Positions 1 through 6,236 of a stretch of 6,236 nucleotides of DNA are shown in pieces. The stretch comes from a virus. The first letter of the stretch is position 1. Every line of letters begins with the position of its first letter. Location of the stretch: the IMG/VR virus record IMGVR_UViG_3300045988_008288, positions 1 through 6,236 of that record. One strand, 5' to 3'. A program made the translations under genes and the position numbers. Under the pieces are notes generated by a model. The model was not told where the DNA came from, ran no database searches, and was given only the letters and a program-made list of their open reading frames with translations.

Positions 1-55
1 AAATGTCCAAAACAGCAACATCACCAAATTGAGAGTTCGGGAGAACACCCATCAA
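1..55. repeat. Terminal direct repeat, copy 1 (circular-assembly overlap)
   Basis: Bases 1-55 (aaatgtccaaaacagcaacatcaccaaattgagagttcgggagaacacccatcaa) are identical base for base to 6182-6236. Confidence 0.97.
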
Positions 56-871
56 CATATCCTTGTTCCAATTACAATACTTGAGGTCAAACATTGTATC
101 AGATTTCCAGTAATCGGTATTATAATCCGGTAAAACAGGAATCAGAGAAGGAGAAACTCCGTTATAATAATCCACATTATAGGAAGAAGGGTTAGCTTTT
201 TCCCATTGGGACCAACGGAAAAAGTCTTGATAAATCTTCTGATAAGCCAAAAGAGGGAAAATATTTACATAACTATTTTGAATATACCGCTGGGTATAAC
301 CTCTTGGGTCATCATCATGTTTTAAAGAAGTAGACCACCAACGGTTATTCTTAGAAGGAGGAGTTTGGAGAAAATTGCCATAACCAAGATAAGACAACAA
401 TTTATAAGCCAAATCAGCACGAAAAAACCCAAACATATTCTTTAAAGAAGAAAGACCGCCAGGAGACCAACTATCAGAATTCAAACGACTCAAACAACCT
501 GACATAATAGACAAGGTGAAAGAAGGCAAATAATTACCCAAAGACAAATTCTGAGTCAAAGACAAAGCTTGAATCTGATTGATGTCCTGCATTCGAGTTA
601 ACACAGAAGGAGCAGATTTCCAAAGAAGGCGCAAGGGCACAGCATAGAAATCAAAATATTCACGCAACCGGGTATAAGCAGAAGTTTCAACGGGCTGAGT
701 ACGGGTAAAGTATTCAACGTTGAACTTATACTTATCACCAGGCATGGAAATATCCCAGTAAACCGGGAGAAGCTCACCAACTTTCGCAGTAAATGCATTT
801 TTACGTCCAATATCAAATCCAGAACGGTGAGGATGATTCTGAATATTGGACATTCCAGTGTAAGAAGCCAT
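1..871 (-). CDS. Major capsid protein (Microviridae VP1/F), N-terminal 290 codons. The ORF runs off the window start and continues across the circular junction into 6181..5202.
   Basis: Absent from the supplied ORF track because it has no stop inside the window. I read the minus-strand frame with codon tops at 871, 868, ... 4. ATG is at 871..869 and there is no in-frame stop (no TTA/CTA/TCA among plus-strand triplets starting at 2, 5, ... 869). Translation begins MASYTGMSNIQNHPHRSGFDIGRKNAFTAKVGELLPVYWDISMPGDKYKFNVEYFTRTQPVETSAYTRLREYFDFYAVPLRLLWK. This is the typical microvirus capsid N-terminus (RSxFD, GxLxP, PGD, FxAVPxRxxW). The frame is continuous with ORF 5202..6236 through the 55-nt overlap. 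Confidence 0.93.
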   Translation of the reverse strand, partial: MASYTGMSNIQNHPHRSGFDIGRKNAFTAKVGELLPVYWDISMPGDKYKFNVEYFTRTQPVETSAYTRLREYFDFYAVPLRLLWKSAPSVLTRMQDINQIQALSLTQNLSLGNYLPSFTLSIMSGCLSRLNSDSWSPGGLSSLKNMFGFFRADLAYKLLSYLGYGNFLQTPPSKNNRWWSTSLKHDDDPRGYTQRYIQNSYVNIFPLLAYQKIYQDFFRWSQWEKANPSSYNVDYYNGVSPSLIPVLPDYNTDYWKSDTMFDLKYCNWNKDMLMGVLPNSQFGDVAVLDI

Positions 872-888
872 AATTAAAAAATTGAAAA

Positions 889-2601
889 TTAAACAATTAC
901 AGGAACATCCTGGAAAGAGAAAATACCAGACAAATCATTAATCCTCTTGTGCTTAACCTTATCCCTACATTTCATCAATGAAGCGGCAGCCAAACGACGA
1001 ACAAGAGGTAATTCATGGTAAGGTTTTTCCTTATTATCAGGAAGCCTATTATAACGGAAGGAATAGTTACGAAGCTCAAAATCGACCAAATCCTTATCAT
1101 TGGAATCCTCCAAAGTCTGATAAAAATCTACAAGACGATTATATTCATAACGATTCCAAAAATTAACTATTTTCTCAGAGATTATTCGCAAAAACCTCTC
1201 TCGGCAAAAGAGGTCTCCTCCAGGAGTGCCGCTGGACCAGAAGAATTCTGAGCATCCATCTGTTGAATATGTTCGAATAAACTTCGAAATTCCGAGGAAA
1301 AAACGGTAGAGACGGGACGTACGATGAACAGGGTCCAAATCAACACCATCGTACAAACGACATTCAGAAAGAATGAGAACATCACTATACGGTAAATTAC
1401 CTTTAGGCGAAAAAACATTTCGTTCATCATTTCTTTTTCCATAACTATCTACATAATTTAAATACTGTTTACAAAAAGATAATATACTTTGCTTAGAAAG
1501 TACATTAAAAGGATCACATCCTATATCAGCACATCCGCTACGAATGACTCGTCCGGGCGCTGTGAACGCAGCAGATAATAACTGGTAAATACTCGATGGA
1601 GATTTACGAATAGCGTCCGAAAATCGGGGGAATAGTCGAAGGAGATACGGCCATGTAGGTTTAATTGTGCGAAAATATCCATCGCGCTCAACGCGGACTC
1701 CATTAAGGCACTTATCGGCAACTTCGTCAATTTCGGCAACTCGTACCTTTCGAGGAAAGAGATTTGACTCTGTAAATCCAATGGAATGGAAGGATTTAGG
1801 TCGCACCACTTTTGGCATCTGAGTATAAAAGTCGGGTAAAGCGACAAAACTGTTAACATACGACGCAACATACGGAGCTGCGAATCCTCTCGACAGTGAC
1901 GCATCACAACGTCCGTAAGACCAAGCCTTAGATACATTTTCAAGAACAGTTTGCGAGAATCGTTCGGAATTGGAAAACAATAACAAATGCCAATGCGGGC
2001 GGAAACTGGTAGGGCCGTATTCTGATACAGCGTAGTAACGTAATTTTTCATCCGGGTAATAACTTCTTAAACGTTTCAAAAACAAATCAAGATCACGATT
2101 ACAAACATAAGGAATCCTATTGGGAACATTATGGTTAATCTTTCCAAGAATAGACAAAAGCTCCTTAGGTTTCATACCATAAGTAAACCGAATTTCAGGG
2201 TCCTTAAAAGTACGTTCGACGGTAGAGTTTTTTAACCTAACAGAAGCGGAACGAGGAACGCTACGAAAACCAAACAAATAAGTGTTAGGGTCACCAGCGT
2301 CCAAGTCATTGATATCGGGAACGCAGGGTACATCCGCAATATCATCCGTACAAGCTTCAATAGTCGAAACCTCCAAAGTAGGAAGGAAACAAGGAGCATA
2401 AGTAAGAGTAACAAAATAAACATAACGGAATTGAGCAGAATAAGTAGTAAGCAGGTTTGTTTGAATCCCGGAACGACGAAGAATACAAGAAGGGCAAGAG
2501 CCACAGGAAACGACAACAGGCTCATGTGTATACTTGTTGACAACCGTACGAGGATGCTGACAACGAGTCACTAACTTATTCTGCAATTCCTTGGTAATCA
2601 T
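889..2601 (-). CDS. Replication initiation protein (HUH rolling-circle endonuclease; Microviridae VP4 / phiX174 A-like), 570 aa
   Basis: ATG at 2601..2599 and TAA at 891..889. Motif I is FVTLTY (aa 63-68). The HUH motif is HWHLLLF (aa 203-209, nt 1995..1975). The double-tyrosine motif YVASYVN (Y244 at 1872..1870, Y248 at 1860..1858) parallels the phiX174 A-protein YVAKYVNK active site. The N-terminal Cys cluster SCGSCPSC (aa 32-39) resembles what I recall in microvirus VP4 proteins. The start overlaps the upstream peptidase stop (ATGA). Confidence 0.93.
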   Translation of the reverse strand: MITKELQNKLVTRCQHPRTVVNKYTHEPVVVSCGSCPSCILRRSGIQTNLLTTYSAQFRYVYFVTLTYAPCFLPTLEVSTIEACTDDIADVPCVPDINDLDAGDPNTYLFGFRSVPRSASVRLKNSTVERTFKDPEIRFTYGMKPKELLSILGKINHNVPNRIPYVCNRDLDLFLKRLRSYYPDEKLRYYAVSEYGPTSFRPHWHLLLFSNSERFSQTVLENVSKAWSYGRCDASLSRGFAAPYVASYVNSFVALPDFYTQMPKVVRPKSFHSIGFTESNLFPRKVRVAEIDEVADKCLNGVRVERDGYFRTIKPTWPYLLRLFPRFSDAIRKSPSSIYQLLSAAFTAPGRVIRSGCADIGCDPFNVLSKQSILSFCKQYLNYVDSYGKRNDERNVFSPKGNLPYSDVLILSECRLYDGVDLDPVHRTSRLYRFFLGISKFIRTYSTDGCSEFFWSSGTPGGDLFCRERFLRIISEKIVNFWNRYEYNRLVDFYQTLEDSNDKDLVDFELRNYSFRYNRLPDNKEKPYHELPLVRRLAAASLMKCRDKVKHKRINDLSGIFSFQDVPVIV

Positions 2602-2906
2602 TTTCTATCAGTAAAATTAAGTTTCATTTGACGGGGCTTACGACCACGAGCAAAAGAAACGTGAATAAACGTACGATATATTATAAGTTGGTCAAACTCA
2701 AAGGGAGAATCTTCAACTATCGAGGAGAAAACACCAATCGGAAAATCAATAGGCGCCAAGTCAATGGCGTCTCCAGTCAGATGCTGAGAAGTGCTAGAAC
2801 CATTACACGCATTATTCTGCGCTACAGTACGAAGAGCAGAAGTAACAGAAAAATGGATGTTCCGACGGAGAAGCCATTCAATAAATTTCATTAATTCAGG
2901 ATTCAT
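2598..2906 (-). CDS. M15-type zinc peptidase (peptidoglycan D,D-/L,D-peptidase fold), probable endolysin, 102 aa
   Basis: ATG at 2906..2904 and TGA at 2600..2598. Residues 40-49, SQHLTGDAID, fit the SxHxxGxAxD signature exactly. With FIHVSF this gives the H-D-H zinc triad: H42 (2783..2781), D49 (2762..2760), H82 (2663..2661). This triad is characteristic of the M15 family (VanY / Peptidase_M15_3 / phage L-Ala-D-Glu peptidases). No signal peptide is evident. Confidence 0.85.
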   Translation of the reverse strand: MNPELMKFIEWLLRRNIHFSVTSALRTVAQNNACNGSSTSQHLTGDAIDLAPIDFPIGVFSSIVEDSPFEFDQLIIYRTFIHVSFARGRKPRQMKLNFTDRK

Positions 2907-2909
2907 GAC

Positions 2910-3002
2910 TTACGAAAAAATTTGGGCAATAGACGTAAGAAGACTGACAGCAGCTGCAATAATAGCAGACCAGATTTTAGATTTAGTTTCACTTTTCATC
3001 AT
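2910..3002 (-). CDS. Hypothetical 30-aa single-pass membrane peptide (holin-like candidate)
   Basis: Below the ORF-track size cut-off, so I translated it by hand. ATG-ATG at 3002..2997 and TAA at 2912..2910 give MMKSETKSKIWSAIIAAAVSLLTSIAQIFS. It has a charged N-terminus followed by one hydrophobic helix of about 20 aa. Its stop lies 3 nt before the peptidase ATG and its start overlaps the end of the 58-aa ORF by 14 nt (operon-like packing). There is no homology evidence. Confidence 0.35.
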   Translation of the reverse strand: MMKSETKSKIWSAIIAAAVSLLTSIAQIFS

Positions 3003-3165
3003 CAACACCATACTTAAAAGTTGAACAAATAGATACAATTAGCAAACAATCCGGAGTAAGAGCCGAAGAAATAAAATCAGCAATCTGATCAGCAGGAACA
3101 AAAACACACTCATTCTTACCGGGATTCTCCTTAGATTGAATCGAACACAAATAACAATTTTCCAT
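2989..3165 (-). CDS. Hypothetical 58-aa acidic, Cys-containing protein
   Basis: Hand translation with ATG at 3165..3163 and TGA at 2991..2989: MENCYLCSIQSKENPGKNECVFVPADQIADFISSALTPDCLLIVSICSTFKYGVDDEK. It has 9 D/E against 4 K and five Cys, including an N-terminal CxxC. It is the first ORF downstream of the candidate promoter and sits on the same strand as all real genes. I recognise no family. Confidence 0.35.
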   Translation of the reverse strand: MENCYLCSIQSKENPGKNECVFVPADQIADFISSALTPDCLLIVSICSTFKYGVDDEK

Positions 3166-3220
3166 ACACTTAACAAATTTTAATTATACATTAGTTATGC
3201 CTTGTTTTTCAAGGGCGGAG

Positions 3221-3253
3221 CAAAGATAAAAAAAAAGTCTTGAAAAGAGCAAA
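3221..3253 (-). promoter_or_regulatory. Candidate Bacteroides-type promoter (-33 TTTG / -7 TAnnTTTG)
   Basis: On the minus strand, TTTG lies at 3253..3250. A 21-nt spacer (3249..3229) follows, then TATCTTTG at 3228..3221. The second element matches TAnnTTTG exactly. The match sits in an AT-rich tract about 55 nt upstream of the ORF58 ATG. A run of nine T (3236..3228) occupies the end of the spacer and the first T of the -7 box. Confidence 0.35.
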
Positions 3254-3311
3254 TAAACACACATATTTTTTATACTTATTAATAAAAAGCTATATGGGTG
3301 GCAGGCTGGTC

Positions 3312-3387
3312 TGTGAGTTTGCGTATATAAGACAAGAGGAGACTGAAAGCGATGAGGTAAATCGCTTTCCTTCCAGGCAAACTCATG
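3312..3387. other. Compound nested hairpin (two perfect 9-bp stems)
   Basis: The outer stem pairs TGAGTTTGC (3314-3322) with GCAAACTCA (3377-3385). The inner stem pairs GAAAGCGAT (3345-3353) with ATCGCTTTC (3361-3369), closing a 7-nt loop GAGGTAA. A possible extra helix pairs GGAG (3338-3341) with CTTCC (3370-3374). In plus-sense RNA, G-U pairs 3313-3386 and 3312-3387 would extend the outer stem. Confidence 0.6.
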
Positions 3388-3454
3388 TAGGCTTCGCCAA
3401 TTTATATTTTAGGTGTTTAGCAGCGACGGAAGAAAAAAAGATTAGAGGAAGACT

Positions 3455-3478
3455 GCTTACGCGTTGCAAGCGTCAAGC
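3455..3478. other. Hairpin with a single-nucleotide bulge
   Basis: GCTT-ACGC (3455-3462) pairs with GCGT-(C bulge at 3474)-AAGC (3470-3478) around the loop GTTGCAA. That gives 8 bp in total. The element contains the palindrome ACGCGT. Confidence 0.4.
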
Positions 3479-3498
3479 TTGTAGGAAGGCATTACTAT

Positions 3499-3568
3499 AG
3501 CCTACGGCTCTGATTTCAGTCCTAACGTCCCGAAATTCAGTAGGTGTATAACCACGCTACGCGCGGTT
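3499..3568. other. Three adjacent hairpins, two with identical C-TAC-G apices
   Basis: (a) 3499-3509: AGCC / TAC / GGCT. (b) 3510-3540: CTGATTTC pairs with GAAA(T)TCAG, 8 bp with a T3536 bulge and a 14-nt loop. (c) 3550-3568: AACCaCGC / TAC / GCGcGGTT, 7 bp with one mismatch. Confidence 0.45.
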
Positions 3569-3587
3569 GCCAGAAGTTACTCCAAGC

Positions 3588-3621
3588 AATAAAACCCGAC
3601 GCGTATCACTACGAGCCGGGC
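3588..3621 (-). terminator. Intrinsic (rho-independent) terminator after the VP2 gene
   Basis: The minus-strand RNA reads 5'-GCCCGGC-U-CGUA-GUGA-UACG-C-GUCGGGU-3' (3621..3594). This makes 11 pairs, two of them G-U (3621/3594 and 3616/3599), with one U-C mismatch and a GNRA-type GUGA tetraloop. With U3594 the downstream run reads UUUUAUU (3594..3588). The stem starts 22 nt after the VP2 TAG-TAA double stop. The G-U pairs exist only in the minus sense, which supports the strand assignment. Confidence 0.6.
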
Positions 3622-3643
3622 AAAACATGACAAACAAAAGTTA

Positions 3644-4705
3644 CTACCAAGGCAAGAAGTTACCTATAGTGTTACCGATAGAAGTACCATAAGATACAGC
3701 CTTATCAGCATCATAATACTTATATTTCTTACCTTCATTACGAGAGCGATACCAATCCTCAATACTACGAGAACGAGCACGCTCACGATTGAATTTAGCC
3801 GCTTCGAGCTCAAATTCAGCATTAGAATGATTTGAAGCATTGGAAGCTCGAATCAAAGAATCGGCAGTGGATTCAGCAACCTTATTGCTGATTTTCTGAC
3901 CTTTGGCACGGGCATAAGTCAACACCTCATCAGCAAGAACTTTCTTGGCCTGATTATAATTCAAATGTCCATGAGACATCTGATTATAATACTCAGAGGC
4001 CTTAACATTCAAATCAGCCTGCTGCTGCTGGTCAAGATATTTGTTAAGAACAGTCTTAGCTTCAGCATCAAGCAACTGGGAAGTACCTTGAGCCTGCAAA
4101 AGACGACCTGCAAAAGCCATATTATCAAATTCCTGCATTTCCTTGGAATAACCAAGCTGAGCACGAGCCAAACCAGTAGCTTTCAGATACTCACGGGTTT
4201 CTTTCGTCATCTTGGACCAATCAACATTAGAAAGAGACTGCATGGCCTGGGCATCCGCAAGGTTTTTCTGTCCTTGTAACTGAGAGACCTGGGCTTGCTG
4301 AACCTGAGACTGGAATACAGAACCTATAGCCTGCTGGACACCGGAATAATCAGCCTGGAAAGGCTGCATAACAGCAGAACCGGCAGAAGAGGCAGAAGCA
4401 CCAGAACCAACAGACTGTGCAGTTCCAGCAGAACCACCGTTCATCATAAGATAAGGATTTAAACCAGCTTCTTCGAGGCGTTGACGTTGCGCGGAGGCAG
4501 TATTATACTCGTTCTCCTTATTCCACATATTTTCCTGGAAATCGCGCTGCTGCATAGCCATACGCTCGTTAAACTGGTTATTCATTTGATTTATCTTATA
4601 GTTCATCTGGTTGGTTTCCCTGACATTTTGTCTATTCTGTGAATTTTGAATTGCAGAAGAGCCAATGCCAAGGAGACCACCAGAGATTGAACCGAGAAGA
4701 CCCAT
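3644..4705 (-). CDS. DNA pilot / minor capsid protein (Microviridae VP2 / phiX H-like), 353 aa
   Basis: ATG at 4705..4703 and TAG at 3646..3644, followed in frame by TAA. The N-terminus is a Gly-rich hydrophobic segment, MGLLGSISGGLLGIGSSAI. The body is long and Q/N/A-rich, coiled-coil-like. The segment RQRLEEAGLNPYLMM contains AGLNP, which I recognise as a recurrent signature of microvirus VP2 proteins. The start overlaps the upstream ORF stop (TAATG). Confidence 0.85.
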   Translation of the reverse strand: MGLLGSISGGLLGIGSSAIQNSQNRQNVRETNQMNYKINQMNNQFNERMAMQQRDFQENMWNKENEYNTASAQRQRLEEAGLNPYLMMNGGSAGTAQSVGSGASASSAGSAVMQPFQADYSGVQQAIGSVFQSQVQQAQVSQLQGQKNLADAQAMQSLSNVDWSKMTKETREYLKATGLARAQLGYSKEMQEFDNMAFAGRLLQAQGTSQLLDAEAKTVLNKYLDQQQQADLNVKASEYYNQMSHGHLNYNQAKKVLADEVLTYARAKGQKISNKVAESTADSLIRASNASNHSNAEFELEAAKFNRERARSRSIEDWYRSRNEGKKYKYYDADKAVSYGTSIGNTIGNFLPW

Positions 4706-5187
4706 TACTCAGAGGAAGCAGATTCAGCGGAAGCAGCAGCCGCTTTTTCTGCTTCTTGTCTAGCATTTTCAACATCAATCAATTCTTGAGCCCGGGACTC
4801 AAGATTTTCAGCATAAGCCGACAACTCTTTAGACCAAGCAATAATTTCAGAGGGAGCTTGAACATGCCGGGAGCGAACCGTTGCCAAAAGGTCATCATCA
4901 GACATGTTATCCATAATCTGCTGAATCTGAGAAGCAGACTGTTTACTTTGACCAAACTTAGAAGCAATAGCAAGACCAGCACGGGAAGTCAAGTCCTTGG
5001 TGTGAAGAATCAAACGAACATCAGAGGTATAGCGAACCGGACGAGTTTCATCAGTATCATCAACCTCTACACGAAGTTCTTCAGTACAATCAAACTCAGG
5101 AGCAACTGCAAAAGCATCAGGCTCAACATTAGGAGTAAGTCCAGAACCTTGTTCCAGACATTCCAAAGAATTAAATTTTCCTATCAT
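4705..5187 (-). CDS. Hypothetical acidic protein, possible internal scaffolding protein (VP3-like), 160 aa from the ATG
   Basis: The ORF track starts this ORF at a TTG (5193). The first ATG is at 5187..5185 (MIGKFNSLE...). TAA is at 4707..4705, overlapping the VP2 ATG by 1 nt. The protein is strongly D/E-rich (EVDDTDE, MSDDD) with an Ala/Glu-rich helical C-terminus. Its position between the capsid and pilot genes and its size and charge are consistent with a scaffold. I recognise no diagnostic motif. Confidence 0.6.
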   Translation of the reverse strand: MIGKFNSLECLEQGSGLTPNVEPDAFAVAPEFDCTEELRVEVDDTDETRPVRYTSDVRLILHTKDLTSRAGLAIASKFGQSKQSASQIQQIMDNMSDDDLLATVRSRHVQAPSEIIAWSKELSAYAENLESRAQELIDVENARQEAEKAAAASAESASSE

Positions 5188-5201
5188 AATCAAAATAAAA
5201 A

Positions 5202-6236
5202 TTAATAAGGTACACCATCACGAGACAAATTACGGGCAACATAACAACCGATATAAGAATTAATCAACAACTGGTCAGTATCCCAAGTAGAATCAGCAGC
5301 AACACCGAAGATAGGATCAAGGACAGAAGGATTAACCTTAAAGAACTTATAGTTCAAGACAACCTTAGTATTCTTGTCAACATCGCCTTCATTATAGCCA
5401 AAGCCAAACCAACCAGAAAGAAGAGATTCAGTAACAGGCGAAACCCAAGACTTAAGAGTAGTGGTAAATGCACCGTTAACAACATCAAGCTTAGTTTTCC
5501 AATTGAAATAACGAGGATTATATCCAGCGTTAAACAAATTAGCAATAGAAGCTCTTGGAGAATTAAGAATCTGTGTCATAGGAAGAACTTCCATACCAAT
5601 ATTATCAAATTCCGGGATAGGAAGGGATTCAGCATCAGTCACAAGAAGTTGACCGTCTTGACCAGTAATCGTATAATCAAGCAAAGGCACGGCATGGTAA
5701 ATACACATAACAACACAATGTTCGTCAGTAGTATAAGTAAATGAACCATTGCCAGCACCGACTCCTTTACCAGCAATAACAGCAACATTATCTTCGGAAG
5801 CAAGGTTATTATTGACAACCTCACTGATATCAAGGTTACGAGAGATACCACCGATATAGGTACACATATTAGAAAGAGCTTGAGGCAAGTTCACACCAAA
5901 ATGTTTGCGTATCTGTTCACGGTAGTCACTATCACCAGACTGACTGATTTCTTTCCAACGCTGAAGAGCTTCGGCCTGACGAAGAGCGAGAACCGTAAAT
6001 TGAGACTGTAAAGTAGACAAATCAACACGAAGAGTTGATGCAAAAGGAACAGTATTAGAGGCAGAGGCTTGCAAAGCAAAGAAAGGAACTGGAGCAGAAT
6101 TAGAAGTAATAGCAGAAGCAACACCAACAGTACTCTTTTTATCATCAGGACCTAAAACAACATTAGAAGCGCCAGAATTAGAAATGTCCAAAACAGCAAC
6201 ATCACCAAATTGAGAGTTCGGGAGAACACCCATCAA
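5202..6236 (-). CDS. Major capsid protein VP1/F, C-terminal part (aa 273-616 of the circularised ORF)
   Basis: The ORF is open to the window end and stops at TAA 5204..5202. The leading 'M' in the track is really Leu (TTG at 6236..6234) inside the protein. Bases 6182-6236 duplicate 1-55 in the same frame. The unique coding length is therefore 871 + 980 = 1851 nt, or 616 aa plus stop. Confidence 0.93.
   Translation of the reverse strand: MMGVLPNSQFGDVAVLDISNSGASNVVLGPDDKKSTVGVASAITSNSAPVPFFALQASASNTVPFASTLRVDLSTLQSQFTVLALRQAEALQRWKEISQSGDSDYREQIRKHFGVNLPQALSNMCTYIGGISRNLDISEVVNNNLASEDNVAVIAGKGVGAGNGSFTYTTDEHCVVMCIYHAVPLLDYTITGQDGQLLVTDAESLPIPEFDNIGMEVLPMTQILNSPRASIANLFNAGYNPRYFNWKTKLDVVNGAFTTTLKSWVSPVTESLLSGWFGFGYNEGDVDKNTKVVLNYKFFKVNPSVLDPIFGVAADSTWDTDQLLINSYIGCYVARNLSRDGVPY
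6182..6236. repeat. Terminal direct repeat, copy 2 (circular-assembly overlap)
   Basis: This is an exact 55/55 match to 1-55. It lies inside the capsid ORF and preserves its reading frame. Confidence 0.97.

Follow-up and report, generated by a model that had tools for sequence, protein, structure and literature searches.

A conserved 29-residue membrane-peptide gene abutting a minimal M15 peptidase gene in a microvirus: a candidate two-gene lysis cassette

How does a microvirus that encodes a peptidase without an export signal bring this enzyme to the peptidoglycan of its host? This question is raised by a 6,236-nt stretch of viral DNA (IMG/VR record IMGVR_UViG_3300045988_008288, positions 1 to 6,236; hereafter the window) that carries on its minus strand a gene for a 102-aa M15 peptidase, a probable endolysin, at 2598..2906 and, immediately upstream of it at 2910..2999, a tiny open reading frame (ORF) for a 29-aa membrane peptide. 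Microviruses are among the most abundant phages in mammalian guts, and the region bears on how those outside the phiX174 group bring about lysis. An earlier reading of the window, made from its letters without database searches (the sequence-only reading), had proposed that the two genes form a holin/endolysin-style lysis module. Our analysis confirms the underlying observation of a membrane-peptide gene next to a peptidase gene and partly supports the holin/endolysin interpretation placed upon it.

A tiny conserved gene upstream of the M15 gene

The tiny ORF (MKSETKSKIWSAIIAAAVSLLTSIAQIFS) ends in a TAA stop codon at 2910-2912, which is included in the coordinates above and is followed by the spacer GTC (2907-2909, minus strand) and then by the ATG of the M15 gene at 2906-2904. 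The gap is thus 3 nt, as had been claimed earlier. The length of 30 aa that had been assigned to the product does not hold. Specifically, the window has two adjacent in-frame ATG codons at 3002 and 2999, the upper of which would give 30 aa, and almost all relatives keep only the ATG equivalent to 2999, indicating that the conserved product is 29 aa. A detail absent from the earlier account is that the tiny ORF and the M15 gene lie in the same reading frame, separated by the TAA plus one codon.

Within the window alone, 2 of the 12 ATG-initiated ORFs of 25-45 aa match the tiny ORF in hydropathy, a frequency at which chance is possible, so the significance of the tiny ORF has to come from comparison with relatives and not from a single genome. 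Our comparison set comprised 91 genomes, namely the window itself and 10 GenBank plus 80 IMG/VR loci with a gene for a relative of its M15 protein. A homologous peptide ORF adjoins the M15 gene in 89 of these 91 genomes, across M15 identities to the window's protein of 45-94%. The two exceptions are Microvirus mar63, where the peptide is absent, and IMG/VR contig L051, where it is seemingly frameshifted. The 66 genomes that make up clade A (M15 proteins 59-91% identical to that of the window) carry a near-invariant 29-aa peptide, MK[SN]ETKSKIW[SA]A[IV]IAAAVSLLTSIAQIFS, that begins at window position 2999. Among 56 distinct nucleotide versions of this clade A ORF, the variable sites are distributed 9/4/22 over the first, second and third codon positions, and the ratio of nonsynonymous to synonymous polymorphism (pN/pS) is 0.105 in the peptide's own frame versus 1.74 and 1.13 in the other two frames. 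The M15 gene is also under purifying selection, with a pN/pS of 0.289, and the constraint on the peptide is the stronger of the two. More distant relatives, whose M15 proteins are 45-52% identical to the window's, carry related peptides. These read MKAETKSKLWAAIISALVSLLSNLANIL in mar62, and MKSNNIWKIVIGAVSAALGYILNAIGL and variants of it in clade B, which takes in Dulem virus 226 and 238, mar56, a human vaginal isolate and 16 IMG/VR contigs.

A search of IMG/VR with a degenerate DNA pattern of the clade A peptide gave the same picture from the opposite direction. All 62 contigs that match the pattern are microviruses, and an M15 motif lies just downstream of it in 61 of the 62, the remaining one (L139) being the same contig as the M15-carrying L028. 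Conservation of the tiny ORF in other microviruses had been proposed as a check on the sequence-only reading, and both the adjacency to M15 and the low pN/pS bear it out. Taken together, these patterns show that the tiny ORF is a real and strongly conserved gene for a single-helix membrane peptide that is coupled to M15.

Two other candidate units in this stretch were rejected. The first is an overlapping ORF in an alternative frame (2903..2992, minus strand, GTG start) with a product that begins MKLNLKSGLLLLQLL; the pN/pS of 1.74 belongs to that frame, indicating that this ORF is a by-product of the composition of the real gene. Its full hydrophobic product is MKLNLKSGLLLLQLLSVFLRLLPKFFRKS, it lies in the +1 frame, its stop overlapping the M15 ATG, and many relatives keep it open. 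The second comprises longer forms of the peptide, of 41-66 aa, that are called in some databases; these were rejected as the conserved unit because there are upstream stops in the window and in several relatives.

The peptide gene is annotated in none of the 10 inspected GenBank records of the window's type. It is represented in only 17 clusters of a 5.8-billion-cluster protein database, and the four clusters that are named are all labeled as hypothetical protein, two of them with the addition Microvirus sp. As a separate observation, the coding sequence annotated as 'peptidase' in Dulem virus 226 and 238 (L009 and L010, both 1138-1512) begins 21 codons too early and masks the peptide gene, which lies in another frame. 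This upstream extension is a probable mis-annotation.

Membrane character of the peptide and properties of the M15 enzyme

The sequence-only reading had described the product of the tiny ORF as a charged head followed by one transmembrane (TM) helix, a description with which our measurements agree. The N-terminus of the window peptide has a net charge of +2 (+2 to +3 across subfamilies), and the Kyte-Doolittle 17-residue mean over residues 12-28 is 2.11, a value that reflects hydropathy only. The single helix measures 20-21 residues in the window and 19-24 across subfamilies, reaches the C-terminus and is composed of Gly, Ala, Ser and Thr to 37-50%. In every subfamily that contains Trp, the polar and small residues fall within one arc of 80-220 degrees from this Trp. 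The resulting polar/small face consists of S11, S19, T22, S23, Q26 and S29 in clade A, and of K8, G12, S15, G19, Y20, N23 and G26 in clade B. The hydrophobic moment is above that of 95-99.6% of shuffled sequences, and this amphipathic design is kept across subfamilies that have a mutual identity of only 20-31%. A face conserved in this manner suggests helix-helix packing or the lining of a pore.

The downstream gene codes for a minimal Peptidase_M15_3 protein, a zinc peptidase of the LAS type. The 102-aa protein matches Pfam PF08291 (Peptidase_M15_3) with 42.8 bits (cut-off 23.2; E 6.5e-11) over profile positions 43-108 of 108, and it matches PHROG 894, annotated 'endolysin', with an E of 8e-14. 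The intact zinc site that had been read as SxHxxGxAxD...H is present as S40-x-H42-x-x-G45-x-A47-x-D49 ... H82. Specifically, R26, S40, H42, G45, A47, D49, D72 and H82 do not vary among 11 diverged homologues from microviruses, at identities down to 45%, and R26, S40, H42, D49 and H82 line up with the R, S, H, D and H that are invariant in full-length homologues. Only two PDB entries match at the sequence level, the T5 L-Ala-D-Glu peptidase (2mxz) and Serratia marcescens ChiX (5opz). An AlphaFold2 model (pLDDT 79, pTM 0.70) has LAS enzymes as its top Foldseek matches in the PDB, namely 1lbu, LysB4 (6akv), Ply500 (2vo9), LdcB and VanY, these matches being weak, with a best E of 5.4e-3 and a TM-score of 0.50. 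LysB4 and Ply500 are endolysins. A peptidoglycan-cleaving activity of the window protein is assumed from its conservation and from its homology to annotated endolysins.

Full-length M15 homologues from metagenome-assembled genomes (MAGs) of Bacteroidales, from other microviruses and from tailed phages are 138-174 aa long and contain an extra F-x-L-x-E-F segment. Relative to these, the window protein is truncated at its N-terminus, as it begins about 35 residues into the domain and leaves F10 and E14 of the full-length alignment unmatched. A 'SEFVSS' resemblance prompted the idea that the product of ORF58, the conserved small gene that precedes the tiny ORF, is the detached N-terminal part of M15. 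This was rejected, as hhalign gives the relationship a probability of 0.1%. The absence of a signal peptide that had been reported earlier stands as well, and there is no TM segment in the M15 protein either, with a highest Kyte-Doolittle 19-residue mean of 1.25. The assignment of this protein as an M15_3/LAS-type peptidase without an export signal is thus supported.

The host of the virus is likely a Gram-negative Bacteroides. The nearest cellular homologues of the M15 protein occur in Bacteroidales MAGs, and on one contig (L091), where a microvirus with the same 29-aa peptide as the window is joined to bacterial genes, the RecR protein is 86-96% identical to RecR of Bacteroides/Bacteroidaceae. 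In a Gram-negative host, an M15 protein with neither a signal nor a TM segment would be a cytoplasmic endolysin that must cross the inner membrane.

The L091 locus (positions 1-12701 of ENA ERZ501913 NODE_27, which is 88 kb long) encodes an M15 protein 89% identical to the window's and is identical, over the shared sequence, to a free 6316-nt genome (L092). Its junction lies inside the 3' end of the major capsid gene VP1; at the end of the contig the circle is 59 nt short. It may be an integrated prophage or an assembly chimera. A scan of representative bacterial genomes for M15 prophages returned homologues that were all distant (31-38% identity), in Bacteroidales and proteobacteria, and no prophage of a microvirus.

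A candidate lysis cassette and the alternatives to it

The reading that we favor, with somewhat better than even confidence, is that the region constitutes a compact lysis cassette of two genes in a microvirus of the Bacteroides type (Alpavirinae-like), in which the peptide would act as a holin-like permeabiliser and the M15 protein as the endolysin. In this model ORF58, the peptide, M15 and the replication initiator Rep would be translated from one mRNA and coupled by their junctions. The peptide would insert in the inner membrane in the orientation that we infer from the positive-inside rule (N-terminus in, C-terminus out), and there it would accumulate, self-associate along its small/polar face and depolarise or perforate the membrane. 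The 11.6-kDa cytoplasmic M15 protein could then reach the peptidoglycan and cut stem peptides, probably at the bond that its closest relatives of solved structure cleave, L-Ala-D-Glu, whereupon the cell would burst. In relatives that have no M15, the peptide may act alone. We are more hesitant, at somewhat less than even confidence, about the further proposal that these 27-30-aa peptides form a new and smallest holin-like class, one in which an amphipathic helix oligomerises and opens the inner membrane for a 102-aa endolysin in a system of only about 400 nt.

Several features speak for a holin-like partner. The peptide is small, it has at least one TM helix as judged by hydropathy, and its gene adjoins that of the endolysin. 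The best PHROG matches of both peptide clades are holin families (phrog_443, E 0.084-0.13; phrog_689, E 0.026), matches that are not significant and that give a weak hint. The adjacency also recurs in a second architecture. Specifically, bajarodmic virus 540 and 633 have the gene order VP1, unknown gene, pilot, Rep, M15, with a full-length M15 protein of 162-166 aa (PHROG 894, E 1e-25 to 1e-28), and they carry a 28-29-aa peptide, MKEKIKKVLEVIVIALSALLGALGGSSL or MNKPIVKKILEIIIAVATAFLGCLGASSI, directly downstream of M15 and overlapping its stop. Comparison of this peptide group with the window's group by hhalign gives a probability of 86% and an E of 4.7e-6, scores that can be inflated for short TM profiles.

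A number of findings weigh against the lysis cassette. Of the features of holins, the adjacency and the TM helix are present in the peptide, and the usual size, the charged C-terminal tail and a match to a holin family are not. The peptide ends with its helix (...IAQIFS) and has all of its charges in the first 8 residues, and it is about half as long as the smallest characterised holins known to us, which measure around 60-70 aa. It has no significant match to any holin family (none in Pfam, weak ones in PHROG), a HMMER search with it over 1.84 billion representative proteins returned microvirus ORFs only, and the protein-database searches gave no link to tailed-phage holins. The peptide may perform a holin- or pinholin-like job, and yet it belongs to no known holin family. 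Lesions made by a single 20-residue helix may moreover be too small for a folded 11.6-kDa protein, the window's M15 protein does not have the N-terminal F-x-L-x-E-F segment of full-length M15_3 proteins, and no spanin-like gene for the outer membrane is seen in the window. Finally, the linkage between the two genes is not strict. Dulem virus 246, 247, 249, 250, 251 and 262 carry a related peptide, MAKKNVWRTILEVIGAVISALLGALGGSTL, after a 73-aa protein and without an M15 motif (247, 250 and 262 were scanned in full; in 246, 249 and 251 there is no annotated peptidase at the peptide match), indicating that the peptide does not need M15. Conversely, Microvirus mar63 has M15 and no such peptide, and the more distant M15 genes of bajarodmic virus 414 and 28 have no adjacent TM ORF. 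The earlier suggestion of an undescribed and dedicated membrane partner therefore survives in its first half, as no description was found in the literature searched or in the 10 GenBank records, and not in its second, given these six Dulem virus species without M15 and the lineages, mar63 among them, with M15 alone.

The 73-aa protein of the Dulem viruses (MKEIVIDCCELKLAGEQDSRV...YLIEPERD) is conserved and has no PHROG match; the stretch that holds it and the tiny TM ORF after it lies at 5902-6217 in Dulem virus 247 (L169), at 5886-6201 in Dulem virus 250 (L170) and at 6056-6383 in Dulem virus 262 (L167). This protein takes the place that belongs to M15 in bajarodmic virus 540 and 633, and it could be a partner that has escaped recognition. 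A DNA pattern for the Dulem virus 247 type of peptide has no match in IMG/VR, though GenBank loci match it. In Dulem virus 245, a relative that likewise lacks M15, the same region instead encodes a single-TM protein of 65 aa. In a distant M15 lineage, bajarodmic virus 66 encodes a 40-aa TM protein, MVYILVLVLVVIKLIIILCFRKKKSISNNKRIGIVDNKRF, annotated as hypothetical, about 400 nt upstream of its peptidase (L101 823-945), possibly as an independent answer to the same problem.

The alternative that survives best, which we regard as distinctly less likely than the two-gene cassette, is that the peptide is an autonomous lysis protein or membrane toxin, comparable to the short single-gene lysis (Sgl) proteins of single-stranded RNA phages or to type I toxins, that acts by depolarisation or by blocking wall synthesis, with M15 as an add-on that would hasten the breakdown of the wall after membrane failure. 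Conservation of related 28-31-aa peptides in Dulem viruses 246-251 and 262 without an M15 motif would follow naturally from this, as would the 65-aa TM protein of the M15-less Dulem virus 245 and the stronger constraint on the peptide than on M15. Classical microviruses lyse with one small membrane protein, the E protein in phiX174, and in single-stranded RNA phages a peptide of about 30-40 aa can be enough, which also favors this alternative. However, the tight adjacency to M15 in two gene orders is hard to explain if the two genes are independent, the peptide has neither the Pro-containing helix of E nor a soluble domain, and the 73-aa protein at M15's place in the M15-less genomes could be a partner after all. 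Note that an autonomous peptide and the peptide of a two-gene cassette share the same core, a membrane-active peptide.

A little less probable again is a role of the peptide in the membrane outside of lysis, for instance in excluding superinfection, in anchoring replication or assembly, or in delivering DNA, with M15 getting to the wall by another route or acting at entry as a virion-associated enzyme. The link of the peptide to lysis is putative, some genomes have the peptide without M15, the peptide gene is second in a gene chain that ends in Rep, and the 65-aa TM protein of Dulem virus 245 weakly matches a PHROG family that resembles superinfection-exclusion (Sie) proteins (E 0.025). What argues for lysis instead is that two architectures both keep the peptide next to M15, on one side of it or the other, that the arrangement matches the order of holin and endolysin genes in tailed phages with a homologous M15, and that the window has no other TM protein able to export M15.

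We regard it as very improbable that the peptide is a signal anchor of M15, in the manner of signal-anchor-release (SAR) endolysins, joined to it by read-through of the TAA or by a frameshift to give a membrane-tethered enzyme. The common frame of the two ORFs, with the stop plus one codon between them, is found in the window and in most clade A genomes (57 loci), the helix is rich in Ala, Ser and Thr like SAR domains, and its layout of charged, hydrophobic and small residues resembles a signal peptide. However, the peptide stop, TAA or TAG, is always kept among the relatives; the other clade A loci have spacers of 9-56 nt in frames 0, +1 or +2; all clade B genomes and mar62 have a +1 ATGA overlap of peptide and M15; and in bajarodmic virus 540 and 633 the peptide is encoded downstream of M15. 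This variation in frame and spacing indicates that the two are not a read-through fusion. In addition, Rep, the scaffold-like gene and VP1 of the window end in TAA and its pilot gene ends in TAG, so these codons are ordinary stops that have not been reassigned, and no slippery sequence was seen at the peptide/M15 junction of the window. A read-through or fusion product was rejected on these grounds. Similarly improbable is a chance ORF, or an upstream ORF that merely regulates translation of M15 and Rep, for even though short hydrophobic ORFs are common in an AT-rich genome (as the 2 of 12 in the window illustrate) and gene callers almost never report the peptide, the codon-position pattern, a low pN/pS in this frame only, a near-invariant clade A peptide beside an M15 that diverges to 61% identity and an amphipathic design conserved across subfamilies all stand against it.

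Gene neighborhood, related systems and implications

The first 55 nt of the window (1-55) are repeated at 6182-6236. This terminal direct repeat indicates that the contig represents a circular genome of 6181 nt, and the minus strand carries every gene of this microvirus. The major capsid gene VP1 (about 870..1 joined to 6181..5202; Pfam Phage_F, PHROG 514) spans the contig ends and is followed by a scaffold-like ORF (5193..4705), by the gene for the DNA pilot protein (4705..3644) and, after a non-coding region of 480 nt, by ORF58 (2989..3165). ORF58 is the first gene of a chain that continues with the peptide and M15 and ends with Rep (VP4/replication initiator; 889..2601; Pfam PF23343, E 1.7e-12; PHROG 942, E 9.7e-35), the successive junctions measuring 11 nt, 3 nt and 4 nt. 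The first of these is an overlap of the final 11 nt of ORF58 (ATGAAAAGTGA) with the start of the tiny ORF, and the last is the ATGA at 2598..2601, already noted in the sequence-only reading, in which the M15 stop overlaps the Rep start in an arrangement of translational coupling. Members of the ORF58 family are 57-70 aa long with the consensus MEKYYLCSIQSK.NPNQNE..LV...E.S.FVSS.L.PDC.LIIS.CSTF and always lie directly upstream of the tiny ORF; the counterpart in relatives is annotated as a hypothetical protein at the same place, and ORF58 has neither a Pfam nor a PHROG match.

By megablast, eight GenBank microviruses cover 83-97% of the window at 84-86% identity, among them two from lemur faeces (Dulem virus 236 and 257) and two from rodent faeces (bajarodmic virus 1134 and 410). 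These relatives have the gene order of the window with a 'peptidase' annotated in all, and the 4-nt overlap of M15 and Rep is likewise annotated in the four that are named here. A side observation concerns a 43-nt non-coding element at window 3543-3585 on the minus strand (TTGGAGTAACTTCTGGCAACCGCGCGTAGCGTGGTTATACACC) that contains the hairpin AACCGCGC-GTA-GCGTGGTT. The element is kept with at most 4 mismatches in 55 of 72 full-length microvirus loci, and Dulem virus 262, which has no other megablast match to the window, contains it with one mismatch. A role as an origin or as some other cis element is possible. An Rfam scan of the window gave nothing meaningful.

The M15 part of this system is not novel. 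M15_3 genes were found in 11 Microviridae by Roux et al. 2012 (PMC3394797), who proposed an endolysin role, and peptidases are listed as lysis-associated accessory genes by Kirchberger et al. 2022 (PMC9239249), in line with the statement in the sequence-only reading that such genes had been noted sporadically. Like the window's gene, the genes in these reports belong to PF08291, occur in Alpavirinae-like microviruses of human and animal guts and are proposed endolysins. Both papers cover the peptidase only and mention no holin or TM partner, whereas the present comparison adds a conserved 27-30-aa membrane-peptide gene that abuts the peptidase gene. The peptidase goes unmentioned in the lemur-virome paper with which the Dulem genomes were deposited, and a full-text literature search for a microvirus holin or TM partner beside M15, which did not extend to subscription-only literature, found no description.

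The closest parallels in gene order are found in tailed phages. In Burkholderia phage vB_CB2a an M15 homologue sits between an annotated holin and an Rz-like spanin, and in several IMG/VR tailed-phage contigs TM proteins of 60-112 aa end 2-6 nt ahead of the M15 start. As in the window, a small membrane-protein gene is located immediately upstream of, and coupled to, the gene for a homologous M15 endolysin without a signal. However, the tailed-phage partners are 60-112 aa long with one to three TM segments and charged tails, whereas the window partner has 29 aa, one helix, no tail and no detectable homology to them. The Burkholderia phage cassette also has a spanin, whereas none is seen in the window, where the enzyme is in addition truncated to 102 aa. 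Phage T5 is a further example of a holin-endolysin cassette with an M15-type endolysin. ChiX, which together with the T5 peptidase makes up all the PDB sequence matches of the window's M15, is an L-Ala-D-Glu endopeptidase that works with the holin-like ChiW; it differs from the window's enzyme in being a bacterial secretion accessory and not part of phage lysis, and ChiW is a holin-like protein of conventional size.

Compared with known single-gene systems, the peptide resembles phiX174 E and the Sgl proteins as a small single-TM effector of a small phage, and the M15-less relatives would fit a one-gene mode. The E protein of phiX174 has 91 aa, is overprinted inside gene D and depends on an essential Pro in its helix. 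In contrast, the window peptide has 29 aa and no Pro, and its gene is free-standing apart from an 11-nt overlap and has a muralytic enzyme gene next to it. SAR endolysins and pinholins share with the peptide a weakly hydrophobic helix rich in Gly, Ala, Ser and Thr, and the helices of pinholins also have small-residue faces. In SAR endolysins, of which P1 Lyz is an example, the helix is part of the enzyme, whereas the helix of the window peptide is not fused to M15. Pinholins such as that of phage 21 have two TM segments and about 68 aa.

What is new here is an unusually small and unannotated membrane component in a holin-endolysin-style cassette in phages whose genome is single-stranded DNA (ssDNA), the M15 gene itself having been known since 2012. 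The peptidase alone cannot explain lysis as it has no way across the inner membrane, and the peptide provides a concrete and testable candidate for this missing step. Annotation pipelines systematically miss or overwrite the peptide gene in more than 100 deposited genomes. If the two-gene reading is true, then the peptide would push the lower size limit of holin-like proteins further down, ssDNA phages would have assembled a two-component lysis cassette like that of tailed phages, and a very small lysis module would become available for use in Bacteroides. The system would then be widespread in the microviruses of gut Bacteroides and invisible to current gene callers.

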